UHGV virus genome: UHGV-2175977
Length of the DNA: 17,361 bases
Direction: 5' to 3' (one strand)
DNA from: a virus
Shown: positions 2,126-7,663 of the stretch, in pieces
How positions within the stretch are numbered: position 1 is the stretch's first letter
How the letters are laid out: each line of letters starts with the position of its first letter
Program-made: the position numbers and the translations under genes
The notes under the pieces: model-generated
The model's database searches: none
Told to the model about the DNA's origin: nothing
Seen by the model: only the letters and a program-made list of their open reading frames with translations

Positions 2126-4579
2126 TTAAAAATCAGCCTGATTCGGGATCAGTTTTTGTATAGCGGCTGTTACGTATTTTGCCTGGTGAAGAGCGTCATC
2201 CAGAGCATTATGGCGCACGCCTTCGAATGGAATTACGCTTCTGGCATTGAAGTCTGTGATTTTCCCCATCTCAACGATTGTGCGTACATCACGATCGTTG
2301 CTGTAATGCCACGGACAGGGGATGTCCAGACGTTCGTATGAGGTGCGCAAAATTGCGTTATCGAACGTTGCGCCATTACCCCACACCTGAACGAATTTTT
2401 CATCAGAGTGTTCATTGACGAATTCCCGAAAACGCAAAAGGGCATCTTTCATTTTTACCTGGTCAGTTAAAATGGCAGCTCTGGCTTCGCTGGACTGCTT
2501 CAGCCACCATTCGATGGTGCCACCATCAGGAACAGCCCCTGTATTCATTGCGTCAGTCAGGCTGATAACGATATAAAATACCGGCCCGATTTCCCCTGTT
2601 TCCGGGTCGAAGAAAACCGCACCAATAACTACTATGGGTGCATTGGTGTTGGTTCCCATTGTTTCAAGGTCGATCATCAGGTGATACCACGTTTTGCTTG
2701 TGGACTTATATTTGTGATGACTGGTTATCTTAATTAAGGGATTTGCCGTCTCGCCAGTTTCACTATCGCTGGCATGATGCTGATTGCCGCCAGAGTTCTC
2801 CTTGTTCTGATGCGCAGAGCCTTCCATTTCCTCTGGATCATTTTCCTGAACTTCAGGCTGATTCTCTTCATCGAACATTTCCTGGTATGTTGCGTCGCCC
2901 ATCACCACGCCACAATCAGGACAGTTGTCGACACCGCTCTGACCGCAGACGGTGCAGACTTTTTCCGGTTCCTGTTGTGCTACTGGTTCGGATTGTTTCG
3001 CTTTTGGCTCTTTTCGTTGCACATTTGGGCTGTTTTGTTCCGCTTTCTGGTCGTTCTGTTCCGATTCTTGCTGGTTCTGGTTCACAGAATCGCGGGTTTC
3101 AATCCCCTTCACCCATTTCGGATCATTCGGGTCGCTAATCCCTTCAGCAAATTCTCCGCCAGAGGTTGCCAGCAATTTGTCTTCGTCGACAGGATTTTGG
3201 GGCGGAATGTTTTTCCGGGATTCATGGAGTTCTGCCCGCAGTTTCTGATATTTCGCATCAACAGAATTCACCTGCGGCTGAGCATCCAGCGGCTGCGTGT
3301 CCGGATGATGTTCAGTTGTATCCGGTTCCACTGTTTCAGTCGTTGGCTGTTCATCTGCCATTGCGCCAGACGGTTGCGGTTTTTCTTCATCATCCTGTTT
3401 TCCTTCTTCTGTTACACGCTGCGGCATTGGGGCAGAGGAACGACCGCAGGCAATATCCACGATTTCCGGATCAGGGTTGGCATGATCGGTTTCGGTCAGC
3501 ACTTTATTCAGGTATTCGGTGACGCGGTGGGGCATAGCCTCTATACCAACCGGTGCTTCTTTCACGGAGGCAACCACGATGGCGCGGGAATAATCCATCC
3601 CGCCTGGCATGTTCAGAAAAGCCTTAAGGAAGACGGAGAAACAGGGATCATTTTCTGCGATAATTTCGTTAACACGTCTGGTATGTGAAGGATGCATGTT
3701 GTAAATATCCACATCCATCGAACGAGCCAGTTTTCCTGTAGCAACATCGAATGCCATTGACGCATTATCATGCACAAAACCTTCGCCGCGATCGGTAAGA
3801 ATACCGCCGCCAGCGTTAGCGCCGGATGGTGTGCGACTGATGCGAGAAACACGATTTCCTTTCATCCACTCTTTTGTAAGCAGACCACGATCAGTGTAGT
3901 CAGCGTCCAGGTATGCTTCGATGAAGGAGGTCATCAGTCCCAGGTCTGAATTTACGGGGGCGGGAAAAACTTTGTCAGTGTCCCGCACCAGTTTGTACAA
4001 ATCCCGAATCTCCAGCGGTTCGAGTTGCGCTGCTTTATTTGAGATGGCCAGCGCGGTAACGGCGGGAAGTTTTTCTTCCTGTGCGTTATGTAATGAGCGC
4101 AGTTCATCCCGCGAAACGTGCGTTACTGGTTTTTCGCCGCCGTGTTGCGCCAGCCAGCGAACAGGCAGAATCTGACCTGAAACCGGCAGAAGCATATTCT
4201 CCTCAATCTCAGTCATGTCTTCGCCATTAACATTGGTGTTGTCAGTGCTGGCTGGTTTGTCCTGCGCGGATGGCGGAGGCGCGATAAATATCATTGTGAT
4301 GCCATCTTCGCCGCCTTTTTCATACCGGTTACAGAATTCGGTATCAAACACGCCTTCCGGTGGAAGGTCATCAACAACGGGCAAATGGACGCGAACAGGT
4401 TTTTTAAAGTCGTCTTCATCATAATCGTTATCATCCATTGCGGTAATGCAGCGGGAGATGGCAACAGATAATTTTTTTGCTGTAGTCCAGTAAAAACCAC
4501 CTTTAATCCCAAGGCGTTTTCTGACTTTGTCATTTTTAGCTTCGCAATATAGCGCAAAAGTTTCTTTATCAGTGCTCAT
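2126..4579 (-). CDS. RecE-like exodeoxyribonuclease VIII homolog with C-terminal DEDDh (DnaQ-like) 3'-5' exonuclease domain
   Basis: 817-aa ORF, GAGG RBS 8 nt upstream. N-terminal and central parts ([19 protein letters not shown]..., acidic/Gln-rich linker, CxxC...CPDC) resemble recalled E. coli RecE; C-terminal ~190 aa carry motifs MIDLETMG (Exo I), [12 protein letters not shown] (Exo II), [13 protein letters not shown] (Exo III, H-x4-D). Confidence 0.8.
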
Positions 4580-4965: not shown

Positions 4966-5517
4966 CTATTTAATACTCAGCAACTGCTCGACGGTCATAT
5001 TTTTAATTGCGCCCCGGTTTATGAGAGTCCATCCCTGCTTTTCCAGATAAAAACGGAAAGTATCCAGAGTACAGACCAGTGCGCCATCAGGAACGGTTTC
5101 GGTGAATTTGATGTAGCCGTGTTCGTCGAAGCGGATAACCAGGGTGCGGCCATCACCCGGGATTATTTTGTCAGCGGGTGTGGTGTTATTCCGGCGCAGT
5201 TCTTCCTCCATGCGGTCGAACTCGGCAATGTAGGCTTCCTTGAATGCAGCGGCCTTTTTGCCGGTGAAGCCCATCACCAGGAAAACGAAGCCGTTTTTGG
5301 TGATTTGGTAGGCATTGTAGGTATTGCCACGGTGCTCGAATTTAACCCGCGAAAAGTTGCTGGTTAAAAAGCGTTCAGAACATTCGAGGGCCTCTATTTT
5401 TTGAACAACATGGTGATGCTGCTTGCCGAAGAATTCTGCGATCGCAATAGACGTAGTGACAGCGCGACCATTTTCAATGGTTACGTCAGGGTGAGAAAGG
5501 GTAAGGGTAGTAGCCAT
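4966..5517 (-). CDS. Rha-family phage regulatory protein (antirepressor-like)
   Basis: ORF track gives 4966..5814, but an intrinsic terminator lies inside the 5' extension. ATG at 5517 has a GAGGA RBS 7 nt upstream and starts the conserved MATTLTLSHPDVTIENGRAVTTSIAIAEFFGKQHHHVVQKIEAL block (Phage_pRha-like). Confidence 0.6.
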   Translation of the reverse strand: MATTLTLSHPDVTIENGRAVTTSIAIAEFFGKQHHHVVQKIEALECSERFLTSNFSRVKFEHRGNTYNAYQITKNGFVFLVMGFTGKKAAAFKEAYIAEFDRMEEELRRNNTTPADKIIPGDGRTLVIRFDEHGYIKFTETVPDGALVCTLDTFRFYLEKQGWTLINRGAIKNMTVEQLLSIK

Positions 5518-5684
5518 GATGGCATCCTCAAGTGTTAAGTTAATTAACTCACCACCGAGGCTTTCCACGACCATAAGGGTGGCGAGACGTACAGGGGTGG
5601 AAATACCGGTCACTCGAGAACCCGGCCAGCCTTGCAGCTGCCCTGCACGCCCCACCATTATCTGAATGTGGCTGTGCATTACGC

Positions 5685-5709
5685 ATAAAAAAACCGCTTC
5701 GGCGCGGTT
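5685..5709 (-). terminator. Intrinsic terminator for leftward transcription (tL-like)
   Basis: On the minus strand AACCGC-gccgaa-GCGGTT hairpin followed by TTTTTTTAT (plus-strand 5685-5709). Confidence 0.5.
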
Positions 5710-5964
5710 ATGCGCTCGAGTAACTTTCGGGTTTCCACGCCCGGCACCCGTTTTATGAGGTGCAGGTGCACTATAATTCCACCCGTACTGGTTTTCAATA
5801 GCTACATTCAACATTTTCTCTTACCTTTCATCACCGAAGTGAACTTTGTTGATGCGGTACCTGGTGCCTCCAGGCGACGTTAACCAGTCTGTGTCCGGCG
5901 CACGCACTCCACCTCACCCGTGGAGAAGTCATTAATTACCAACCCTGGCCTTGTTGATTAGCTG

Positions 5965-6183
5965 TTAACGCGGGTATGTAATCATTCTGGCAATGCTTAA
6001 TGCCGCTGCTTTTTCCAGCCTGGTGATATCCTGCTCCAGAGCTGACAGATTTTCAGCCTCCTTAGCCCTGGCTTCATTGGCCCACTTCAGGTCCTGCGCA
6101 GCCTGAATTTTCCGGCGCATCCACTCATAAAGTTCATCATCGGTATAGTCTGGCGAGATGATGACGGGTTCTCGCTTCTGCAT
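5965..6183 (-). CDS. Hypothetical small early-left protein
   Basis: 72-aa ORF, first gene downstream of the leftward promoter/operator cluster; charged, predicted helical (…KEAENLSALEQDITRLEKAAALS). Confidence 0.45.
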   Translation of the reverse strand: MQKREPVIISPDYTDDELYEWMRRKIQAAQDLKWANEARAKEAENLSALEQDITRLEKAAALSIARMITYPR

Positions 6184-6366: not shown

Positions 6367-6413
6367 TATATAATGTACTTTGCGTTCAGTGTTGTAAAGT
6401 ACCTTAAGTACAT
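6367..6413 (-). promoter_or_regulatory. Leftward early promoter (PL-like) with three GTAC-core operator-like sites
   Basis: Minus-strand -35 TTTACA (plus 6393-6398) and -10 CATTAT (plus 6370-6375), 17-nt spacer; ATGTACT at 6373-6379, AAAGTACC at 6396-6403, AAGTACAT at 6406-6413 overlap the promoter elements. Confidence 0.4.
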
Positions 6414-6487: not shown

Positions 6488-6907
6488 TTAAGAGGCTTTT
6501 TGTTTTTTCTTTCGTGCTAACTCTTCGTAAATTGCATTGTACTTCTGTTTTTTCTCCTCAAGAGTTTTTAAAAGTTCATCTGTCTCACTGTCAGGGAGCT
6601 CGTCCAGAAGGTCAATGATGATTTTTTGTCTTGGATTTAACTCCTGATAGAAACGTACCTGTCCACTTTCTTCTGTATCCTCTCCCAAAAGATAGGTTGG
6701 TGTTGTTCCAATGAGTGTTGCTAATTCCCTTAATTTCTCTCGGCGAGGAATTGTTTCGCCATTAAACCATTTGCTAACCGCTTTTGGTGTTAATTTCATT
6801 CGACGGGCAATTTCTGCCTGCCTTCCATGTTGTTCATAACCAGCGTTTTCACAGGCTAGCGCAAGCCTACTGGCGAACTCTTTACGCGCTTTATCTTCAT
6901 GAACCAT
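6488..6907 (-). CDS. Prophage repressor, XRE/CI-like HTH, no peptidase domain (RacR-like)
   Basis: 139-aa ORF divergent from a cro-like gene; HTH segment GRQAEIARRMKLTPKAVSKWFNGETIP; charged coiled-coil-like C-terminus; no Ser-Lys protease motif. Confidence 0.8.
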   Translation of the reverse strand: MVHEDKARKEFASRLALACENAGYEQHGRQAEIARRMKLTPKAVSKWFNGETIPRREKLRELATLIGTTPTYLLGEDTEESGQVRFYQELNPRQKIIIDLLDELPDSETDELLKTLEEKKQKYNAIYEELARKKKQKAS

Positions 6908-6927
6908 AAGTTCAATGATATTCGCTC

Positions 6928-6962
6928 TTGAATGTACTGTCAGTTCTGTTATAGCATGTACT
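6928..6962 (+). promoter_or_regulatory. Rightward early promoter (PR-like) with two ATGTACT operator-like repeats
   Basis: -35 TTGAAT (6928-6933), -10-like TATAGC (6950-6955); ATGTACT at 6932-6938 and 6956-6962, 24 bp apart, within the 79-bp divergent intergenic region. Confidence 0.4.
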
Positions 6963-6986
6963 CAAAGTTCACATTGTGAGGGTGAT

Positions 6987-7241
6987 ATGAACCAGAAAAC
7001 ACTTGAAGATGTAATCAAAACTGTTCGCGTTTCTGTTGTGGCCGACGTTTGTGGTGTCAGCCAAAGAGCAATCTACAAATGGATGGATAACGGAAAATTG
7101 CCTCGCACAGAATATACCGGCGAAACAAATTACGCTGAAAAAATCGCTCATGCATCAAACGGATTATTTTCTGCCGATGCAATTTTAACTATTGGCAGAA
7201 ATAAAACTACTACGAAAAAGCTGATGGGAGTTGATTCATGA
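6987..7241 (+). CDS. Cro/YdaS-like HTH regulator
   Basis: ORF track starts at 6915; ATG at 6987 has a GAGGGTG RBS and gives MNQKTLEDV... with HTH VVADVCGVSQRAIYKWMDNGKLP; divergent from repressor. Confidence 0.7.
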   Translation: MNQKTLEDVIKTVRVSVVADVCGVSQRAIYKWMDNGKLPRTEYTGETNYAEKIAHASNGLFSADAILTIGRNKTTTKKLMGVDS

Positions 7242-7663
7242 AAATCAAGCATGAGCATATCCGCATGGCGATGAATGCCTGGGCGCGTCCGGATGGTGAA
7301 AAAGTTCCGGCAGCTGAAATAACCAGGGTTTATTTCGAGCTGGGCATGACGTTTCCTGAGCTGTACGACGACAGCCATCCGGAAGCCCTGGCCCGTAATA
7401 CCCAGAAAATTTTCCGCTGGGTGGAGAAAGACACCCCTGATGCGGTTGAAAAAATTCAGGCGTTACTACCAGCGATCGAAAAGGCAATGCCGCCTTTGCT
7501 GGTGGCCAGAATGCGTAGCCACAGCTCAGCCTATTTCAGGGAGCTGCTGGAGACACGAGAACGGCTGGTGAGAGACGCTGATGATTTTATCGCAGTGGCA
7601 ATCGCCGGTTTCAATCAGATGAATCGTGGTGGCCCGGCGGGTAATGCTGTGGTGATGCACTGA
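7238..7663 (+). CDS. YdaT-like (CII-like) early regulator
   Basis: 141-aa ORF, start overlaps upstream stop (ATGA); positional equivalent of ydaT after racR-ydaS; assignment positional plus recollection. Confidence 0.5.
   Translation: MKIKHEHIRMAMNAWARPDGEKVPAAEITRVYFELGMTFPELYDDSHPEALARNTQKIFRWVEKDTPDAVEKIQALLPAIEKAMPPLLVARMRSHSSAYFRELLETRERLVRDADDFIAVAIAGFNQMNRGGPAGNAVVMH

Follow-up and report, generated by a model that had tools for sequence, protein, structure and literature searches.

The repressors of the Gifsy prophages, of like size to the one considered here, stay uncleaved during induction and lose their activity to antirepressors, with DicA and RacR named as members of the same family (Lemire et al., PMC3121763); Rem is an antirepressor of DicA (Ragunathan et al.), and inactivation by antirepressors is described for DicA-class repressors (PMC3121763; bioRxiv 10.1101/2023.04.14.536235). 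Elsewhere the c4 RNA of phage P1 blocks Ant synthesis at the ribosome-binding site, with the c4 of P1 and P7 setting heteroimmunity (PMC8546580, PMC12197685), and in the isrK-orf45-anrP locus of Gifsy-1 IsrK activates translation of the antirepressor-like AnrP in trans and the 'orf45' region gives a processed RNA of ~80 nucleotides (STnc1160); when AnrP is expressed, early and Q-operon transcripts increase and the prophage is induced (Hershko-Shalev et al. 2016, PMC4825925). Here we describe the repressor and left operon of UHGV virus genome UHGV-2175977, a stretch of 17,361 nucleotides (the window) which was a 100% match to a prophage of E. coli strain 135 inserted at ompW. The element is a Rac/Qin/Gifsy-like lambdoid prophage and the window holds its immunity region. 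The switch is of a known kind and is not new, being a DicA/Gifsy-class repressor combined with a P1-type antisense RNA gate, and we lean slightly towards a model in which a repressor that does not cleave itself is relieved by an RNA-gated candidate antirepressor, the Rha-like protein of the left operon.

A short repressor with a DicA-type tail

The features of the repressor and its control regions were as follows.

6488..6907, minus strand: prophage repressor of the DicA/GfoR class, 139 residues (helix-turn-helix (HTH) domain at 1-75, linker, two-helix tail at 92-138 with an LP turn at P105)
6915..6943, minus strand: PRM-like promoter, CTGACA-17-TATCAT, sigma-70-like with a 10/12 consensus match, its -10 ending 8 nucleotides before the repressor ATG
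6932..6970, plus strand: right operator region, two copies of ATGTACT-N4-GTTC (6932-6946 and 6956-6970) overlapping the divergent promoters
6928-6933 and 6950-6955, plus strand: candidate PR promoter, TTGAAT-16-TATAGC, hexamers picked by eye
6370..6413, minus strand: PL-like promoter, TTTACA-17-CATTAT (6398..6370), flanked and overlapped by two operator copies at 6373-6387 (plus) and 6399-6413 (minus)

The open reading frame (ORF) at 6488-6907 lies on the minus strand in the cI position and was called identically in RefSeq, with the same ATG start (WP_000233320.1). The Pfam scan of the repressor gave only HTH_3 (residues 29-73, E 1.8e-9) and HTH_31, with no match to Peptidase_S24 (PF00717) in its 139 residues, and the solved relatives returned by a PDB sequence search were only the N-terminal domains of P22 C2 (the best match) and the 434 repressor. 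The AlphaFold model (predicted local distance difference test, pLDDT, 82.8) showed five helices (2-74), a low-confidence linker and two further helices (92-103 and 106-138), the tail helices being predicted at pLDDT 75-86, and 44% of the tail (residues 76-139, the last 64) was made up of D, E, K or R. Alignment ran end to end, tail included, with DicA of Qin (29% identity over 112 residues, E 5e-15) and over the full length, again with the tail, with GfoR of Gifsy-1 (25% over 101 residues, E 3e-10). The tail pattern LLxLFxxLPxSE was common to 15 class representatives, in which the proline at the helix-helix turn (P105) was invariant. Repressors of Raoultella and Klebsiella found by database search were 62-72% identical over the first ~100 residues and then continued into a full S24 domain (SAGPG, GDSM, KRL), the homology to these S24-bearing relatives, which include P0021 and P0034, stopping at the hinge. 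Alignment with the S24 homologues, the check proposed for a cleavage motif by an earlier sequence-only reading, gave no counterpart in the repressor of the Ala-Gly site or the Ser/Lys dyad, whether as SAGPG, GDSM or KRL.

The repressor belongs to the DicA/GfoR class of short repressors and, because it is without an S24 domain, is predicted to be unable to cleave itself; given the results of Lemire et al. and Ragunathan et al., the missing peptidase domain is therefore a real and known feature of the class. The sequence-only reading had taken the protein for an HTH domain with a charged helical tail, had judged RecA-stimulated autocleavage unlikely and had seen no Shine-Dalgarno (SD) sequence before its ATG, and on all three counts its observation was accurate and its interpretation reasonable. 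What is added here is the RNA cassette described below, a corrected gene start and an exchange between S24 domain and tail. As the S24 relatives share the DNA-binding domain and the operators, one DNA-binding domain occurs with two alternative C-terminal modules, and judged by alignment the tail is a module swap at the hinge, rather than a truncation. At one S24-type repressor locus (L093, 8001-8723) the repressor/cro intergenic region carried the same operator motif and the same start lacking an SD, and no Rha gene was found in the left operon of this locus, the home of the S24 twin of the repressor. The exchange point between tail-type and S24 proteins (window 6600-6907, minus strand, compared with L093) lies at the hinge, the place expected for an Ala-Gly cleavage site.

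Four perfect ATGTACT-N4-GTWC sites were found in the window (6373, 6399 inverted, 6932 and 6956), all within the two control regions, compared with a chance expectation of 0.24. In the 20 nucleotides upstream of the repressor ATG the best duplex with the anti-SD was -1.9 kcal/mol, relative to -6.0 to -9.2 kcal/mol for Rha, the cro-like gene, YdaT and kil. Because the PRM-like -10 ends 8 nucleotides before the ATG and no SD is present, the simplest reading is that the repressor messenger RNA would be leaderless or carry a 1-nucleotide leader. The earlier suggestion of a leaderless or weakly initiated message thus fits the promoter geometry and the missing SD, with a transcription start predicted from consensus.

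The isrK/C4 RNA cassette upstream of Rha

Between ydfC and kil the following features were located, the RNA cassette at 5575-5763 having been missed by the sequence-only reading.

4966..5517, minus strand: Rha-like protein, 183 residues, candidate antirepressor, with a Phage_pRha N-domain (~12-110) and a C-terminal domain
5524..5568, minus strand: predicted C4 targets in the Rha leader, a2 GUGGAAA (5568-5562) and b2 CACUUGAGGAU (5534-5524), the latter including the Rha SD GAGG (5529-5526)
5575..5662, minus strand: C4-type antisense RNA (Rfam RF01695, 73.8 bits with gathering threshold 45, full-length match), with b' loop (hairpin 2) GUUCUCGAGUG at 5621-5611 and a' (3' junction) UUUCCAC at 5603-5597
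5709-5692, minus strand: intrinsic terminator stem of isrK, with U-run
5687..5763, minus strand: isrK small RNA (sRNA), the leader bearing a1/b1 (Rfam RF01394, 67.2 bits with gathering threshold 50), with a1 GUGGAAA at 5738-5732 (hairpin loop) and b1 GUUACUCGAG at 5724-5715
5770..5798, minus strand: isrK promoter, TTGAAA-17-TATAGT, ending 7 nucleotides before isrK, its predicted start falling on base 1 of the Rfam match to isrK

The isrK promoter was conserved, or nearer to consensus, in related modules, and a weak Rfam match to c4-a1b1 was also obtained over isrK. Within the window the predicted helices were of 11 base pairs for b'-b2, including the SD, 10 base pairs for b'-b1, and 7 base pairs each for a'-a1 and a'-a2. 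The read-through transcript folded at z = -3.9 relative to shuffled sequences, with a1b1 paired to a'b'. Covariation was scored in a sample of 80 related IMG/VR loci plus others, from which 41 distinct upstream regions were aligned and 40 scored, pairing being measured as best ungapped helices between cognate and non-cognate partners; the b'-b2 register shifts by 2 nucleotides and a2 is misaligned by indels. A scan of genome contigs returned only 9 loci, none of them from Salmonella. The 40 modules held 14 variants of the b' loop and 8 of a', each with matching partner sites. Cognate helices were on average longer than non-cognate ones at b'-b2 (10.9 and 5.5 base pairs, respectively), and the same held at b'-b1 (8.6 and 5.1), at a'-a2 (7.2 and 4.7) and at a'-a1 (7.1 and 4.2). 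In a sample of loci that covered all repressor families, the Rha homologue was preceded by both isrK and C4 at every one (12/12).

The C4 type was independent of the repressor family (loci L013-L092 and the window), this repressor occurring with at least 4 b' loops and single b' types occurring with at least 5 families. C4 specificity thus reassorts freely with repressor type, implying frequent recombination between two immunity layers. A DicF sRNA gene stood just 5' of isrK in several related prophages (L013 4406-4457, L030 7479-7530 and L056 7469-7520), and no DicF match was found in the ydfC-isrK spacer of the window (5830-5964).

The Rha-family gene had been placed at 4966..5517 from the letters alone, and this was borne out by a Phage_pRha match (PF09669, 91.4 bits with a cut-off of 29.9), by the GAGG found 8 nucleotides upstream of the ATG at 5517 and by Salmonella homologues called at 183-184 residues. 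The RefSeq call is longer (4966..5814, 282 residues), and its extra 99 codons take in two Rfam RNA genes together with a promoter and an intrinsic terminator; the start at 5517 is correct and the shorter call is better than that of RefSeq. RefSeq/PGAP, most database entries (281-284 residues) and PHROG 995 all run the Rha ORF through isrK/C4, the promoter and the terminator (5518-5814, minus strand), and a Pfam match to PF10554 (Phage_ASH, E 1.5e-13) covered exactly the translated RNA region 5' of Rha. The Phage_ASH 'protein family' may largely consist of translated C4/CI-type RNA genes; in practice, genome pipelines and this Pfam family now take the two RNA genes for protein sequence. An in-frame ATG at 5574 (5565-5574, minus strand), 19 codons before the Rha start, follows directly after C4 and overlaps a2, with an anti-SD duplex of +0.9 kcal/mol, and could be a remnant of the coupling ORF orf45 of Gifsy-1 or a second start of the Ant1/Ant2 kind.

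Rha as a candidate antirepressor

Such a layout of isrK and C4 is characteristic of genes for antirepressors (P1 c4-icd-ant, Gifsy-1 isrK-anrP), and the reading of Rha as an antirepressor is therefore strengthened. A second line of evidence came from the other end of the prophage, where an ORF6N protein (L003, NZ_CP080260.1 2608000-2652000, at 36980-37540) was 69% identical to AnrP of Gifsy-1 (sequence from record NC_010392) and is its orthologue. This gene, in the region L003 36353-37800, is preceded by an isrK-C4 cassette of its own (isrK at 37781-37705 and C4 at 37677-37593), the specificity of which differs from that in the window; a partial C4-like remnant (L003 36868-36936) lies 3' of the gene. 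The C-terminal ~65-80 residues were common to Rha and this AnrP orthologue (41-49% identity, E 1e-20). The C-domain of Rha was 82-99% conserved among related loci, gave no tblastn match in 50,697 phage records and was modelled at low confidence (pLDDT 60-70). PHROG matches of Rha to 'anti-repressor' families were limited to the N-domain and are annotation only.

In 65/65 related IMG/VR loci with the immunity region captured, the Rha C-domain stood beside a cI-position HTH protein of 123-176 residues with a DicA tail, none of them with S24, and the repressors at these loci fell into 11 families by DNA-binding domain. Salmonella loci without YdaT likewise paired the C-domain with DicA-tail repressors. 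In three phages with S24 repressors (an Stx2a phage, mEp460 and ST64B), isrK-C4-Rha-N genes carried other C-terminal domains; as such modules also occur in phages with cleavable S24 repressors, the presence of Rha is no consequence of the missing peptidase. The co-occurrence of C-domain and tail fits recognition of the DicA-type tail and could equally be backbone linkage.

LexA-controlled small antirepressors such as GfoA/GftA, Rem and Tum are encoded by a small ORF that follows a LexA box, often beside dinI. When GfoA, Rem and Gifsy DinI were used as tblastn queries, neither the window nor the remainder of the prophage gave a match to any but DinI (others E >= 0.3), and this lack of a competing small antirepressor in the prophage was counted in favour of the Rha model. 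Two perfect LexA boxes (L003 36617-36632 and 36645-36660) precede only a dinI-like gene, after which no ORF was found. In the window, a search for CTGT-N8-ACAG with at most 1 mismatch gave 10 matches where 5 were expected, and the immunity region had none nearby. The perfect site at 11835-11850 (CTGTTGACGACAACAG), which lies between the divergent parD (11527-11784, minus strand) and a 92-residue ORF (11920-12198, plus strand), was rejected as a LexA box, being a GC-rich palindrome in the parDE promoter; its GC-rich centre suggests a ParD operator instead. That 92-residue ORF, which occupies the position of rem in Qin, was in turn rejected as Rem, having no BLASTP similarity to it. With LexA boxes only at the dinI-like gene and no GfoA or Rem, the SOS link typical of Gifsy is therefore not visible, and the induction input may be the level of IsrK, a trans antirepressor of another prophage, or stochastic switching.

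From the layout of genes and RNAs observed here, together with the homologies, the base-pairing that covaries and the occurrence beside tail-type repressors, the following course of events may be proposed. The 139-residue protein would be the maintenance repressor, translated from a PRM transcript with no leader or almost none, and would bind the four ATGTACT-N4-GTWC operators overlapping PL and the divergent PR/PRM. With a DicA/GfoR tail in place of S24 it would escape RecA-triggered self-cleavage and would need a protein partner or stochastic escape for its inactivation. The isrK promoter (5798-5770) would make IsrK, most transcripts ending at 5692-5709, and read-through would yield the C4-type RNA, whose a' and b' would base-pair with the a2 and b2 sites of the Rha leader; since b2 covers the Rha SD, translation of Rha would be blocked in the lysogen and on any phage that enters with the same C4 type. 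IsrK carries the decoy a1/b1 and might act as an anti-antisense RNA, in that more IsrK, or transcription from a derepressed PL, would titrate C4 and allow Rha to be made. Rha would then bind the repressor, possibly via its C-terminal domain.

Several observations weigh against this model. No ANT/AntA domain and no likeness to the P1/P22 Ant families was found in Rha by Pfam, which gave only Phage_pRha, and no similar solved structure was returned by PDB sequence search or by Foldseek at E below 0.1. Orthology of Rha to AnrP of Gifsy-1 (STM2616) was rejected (BLASTP E 5.9, with no likeness to the AnrP N-domain), and the true AnrP orthologue, as judged by sequence, sits at the prophage's other end, outside the window. 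The repressor is accompanied by neither a LexA box nor a GfoA/Rem-type gene, its leaderless start was placed by consensus match only, and isrK-C4-Rha cassettes exist in phages with cleavable repressors. Repressor tails were ~20-35% identical where the Rha C-domain was 82-99% conserved, and so no partner covariation was seen. The co-occurrence may stem from a shared prophage backbone, in a sample that is biased as loci were also found through YdaT. As Rha lies in an operon shut off by the repressor, it may act after derepression and not before, and a left-operon gene need not be the induction input, as FsoA of Fels-1 illustrates (PMC3121763). The proposal of the sequence-only reading, that Rha is a candidate antirepressor-type input, has thus gained from the isrK-C4 cassette on its SD and from the C-domain shared with the AnrP orthologue, and has lost from the want of orthology to a tested antirepressor; we judge it evenly poised that Rha is an antirepressor.

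The model can be extended, more tentatively and with clearly less confidence than is given to its core. The ~65-residue C-domain might be a module that binds the DicA/GfoR tail, carried by two antirepressors with swappable N-domains, each locked by an orthogonal IsrK/C4 pair. A second immunity layer, made of RNA and with at least 14 specificities, would then reassort independently of repressor specificity and decide by which phages, superinfecting or co-resident, the ~20% of E. coli genomes with this immunity type may be trans-induced, with IsrK as a natural C4 decoy.

Among the alternatives the best surviving one, which we consider rather unlikely, keeps the repressor under antirepressor control and gives the trigger to the right-end AnrP orthologue or to a LexA-controlled small antirepressor acting in trans. 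Rha would then serve, after derepression of PL, as a feed-forward lock or as a cross-talk inducer of other DicA-type prophages, in the way that FsoA of Fels-1 acts on Gifsy-2. The position of Rha downstream of a repressor-controlled PL-like promoter is consistent with this, as is the right-end ORF6N protein, which is 69% identical to the protein actually tested in Gifsy-1 and has a cassette of different specificity; moreover, FsoA is a left-operon antirepressor acting on another phage's repressor, and antirepressors commonly act on heteroimmune repressors (PMC3121763). Such a role is countered by the conserved promoter that Rha has of its own before isrK, because of which its expression is not solely dependent on PL, and by the lack of a GfoA/Rem-type gene in the prophage. 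Rha and the AnrP orthologue also share their C-terminal domain, so the two may duplicate each other instead of having separate targets.

Toxic or regulatory activity is frequent among proteins of the Rha, Bro-N and KilA-N types. Rha might accordingly be no antirepressor and instead a DNA-binding regulator or host-directed effector, silenced by C4 as harmful, with the repressor relieved by stochastic bistable switching between repressor and Cro-like protein, or by stress, as described for DicA/DicC. The family name and a weak fold resemblance to winged-helix DNA binders point this way, along with the lack of homology to proven antirepressors, the host-directed left-operon neighbour kil and the spontaneous, antirepressor-independent derepression of dicBp reported for DicA/DicC (10.1101/2023.04.14.536235). 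C4-type cassettes, however, classically sit on antirepressor genes (P1, Gifsy-1 AnrP), most PHROG families that match the N-domain bear the label anti-repressor (by annotation only), and the C-domain occurred strictly with tail-type repressors in the sample; we consider this second alternative improbable. That the prophage is defective and its repressor the decayed remains of a cleavable protein of the CI type, rendering the induction question moot, is highly improbable and already largely refuted by tail homology, for although homologues sharing the N-terminal 100 residues carry S24 domains and IS66 has inserted in the prophage tail region, the repressor tail is no out-of-frame debris, is homologous to the DicA/GfoR tails, is kept across at least 11 repressor families with its invariant Pro, is predicted helical (pLDDT 75-86), and belongs to a gene conserved with its operators at >=99% in 1023 genomes.

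Prophage setting and comparison with known systems

Around the repressor and the cassette, three further genes of the immunity region were assigned.

5965..6183, minus strand: ydfC homologue, leading gene of the left operon, 93% identical to YdfC of Qin
6987..7241, plus strand: Cro-position HTH gene, 84 residues, divergent from the repressor
7238..7663, plus strand: YdaT / CII-like gene

The minus strand carried, in order, integrase, excisionase, RecE/exonuclease, kil, Rha, ydfC and the repressor, and the plus strand the Cro-position HTH gene, YdaT (CII-like), DUF1376/DnaT, P-like replication genes, parDE, DUF968, RusA, Q and two transfer RNAs. The latter (annotated Ile and Arg; 15370-15442 and 15447-15520, plus strand) stand 3' of the antiterminator gene Q, an arrangement found in many lambdoid phages of the Stx type. 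A single unbroken ORF of 817 residues (2126-4579, minus strand), made up of an Exonuclease VIII (RecE) N-terminal region and an Rv2179c-like 3'-5' exoribonuclease domain, is two coding sequences in RefSeq.

The repressor with its operators was found in 1047/5426 complete E. coli genomes, O157:H7 included, and the isrK-C4-Rha cassette in most E. coli genomes. As this exact repressor and operator set is present in ~1 in 5 complete genomes of the species, a switch worked by RNA-gated antirepressors and not by RecA cleavage would, if the model holds, make SOS-based predictions of induction and of toxic left-operon expression (kil) wrong for these prophages, and cross-induction among co-resident prophages would depend on C4 specificity.

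Like the window's repressor, DicA of Qin and GfoR/GtgR/GfhR of the Gifsy prophages are proteins of ~135 residues with a Cro/CI HTH and the LLxLFxxLPxSE two-helix tail, without S24 or Ala-Gly site, encoded in the cI position, divergent from a Cro-like gene and upstream of a left operon containing ydfC. They differ in the DNA-binding domain (25-29% identical), which in the window is closer to the S24-type repressors of Raoultella and Klebsiella (62-72%). They also have the antirepressors Rem (DicA) and GfoA, GftA and GfhA (Gifsy), whereas the window prophage is without a Rem/GfoA-type gene or a LexA-controlled antirepressor operon. The lambda cI/PRM region shares with the window divergent PR/PRM promoters, operators over both and a start codon without SD at the (here predicted) transcription start; lambda cI has a cleavable C-terminal domain, unlike the repressor described here, and the window operators are 15-base-pair ATGTACT-N4-GTWC sites, two at OR and two at OL.

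Gifsy-1 shares with the window an isrK with its own promoter and leaky terminator, an antirepressor-like gene translated only once the RNA block is removed, and a GfoR/DicA-class repressor in the host prophage, and its STnc1160 is the C4 region. The N-domain of AnrP is ORF6N where that of the window protein is Rha, and the Rha C-domain resembles that of the prophage's AnrP orthologue, not the C-terminus of AnrP in Gifsy-1 itself. The orf45 of Gifsy-1 ends in AUGA, whereas in the window that frame is fused to the gene, and the Gifsy-1 cassette lies downstream of Q where that of the window lies in the left operon.

In the immI region of P1 and P7 the order is c4 antisense RNA, icd and ant1/2, with an icd-like ORF between c4 and ant that is translationally coupled. 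The RNA belongs to the same Rfam C4 family as that of the window, with a'/b' set against upstream a1/b1 and downstream a2/b2, b2 at the ribosome-binding site and many heteroimmune variants, and in both the downstream gene encodes an antirepressor-type protein. In the window, by contrast, b2 covers Rha's own SD, there is no icd-like ORF and only the SD-less in-frame ATG at 5574, and the protein has a Phage_pRha N-domain without ANT/AntA. Unlike that of P1, the window cassette sits inside a lambdoid left operon beside a CI-type repressor, not P1 C1, and its a1/b1 leader ends in a terminator of its own, through which it is predicted to be released also as a free sRNA, IsrK.

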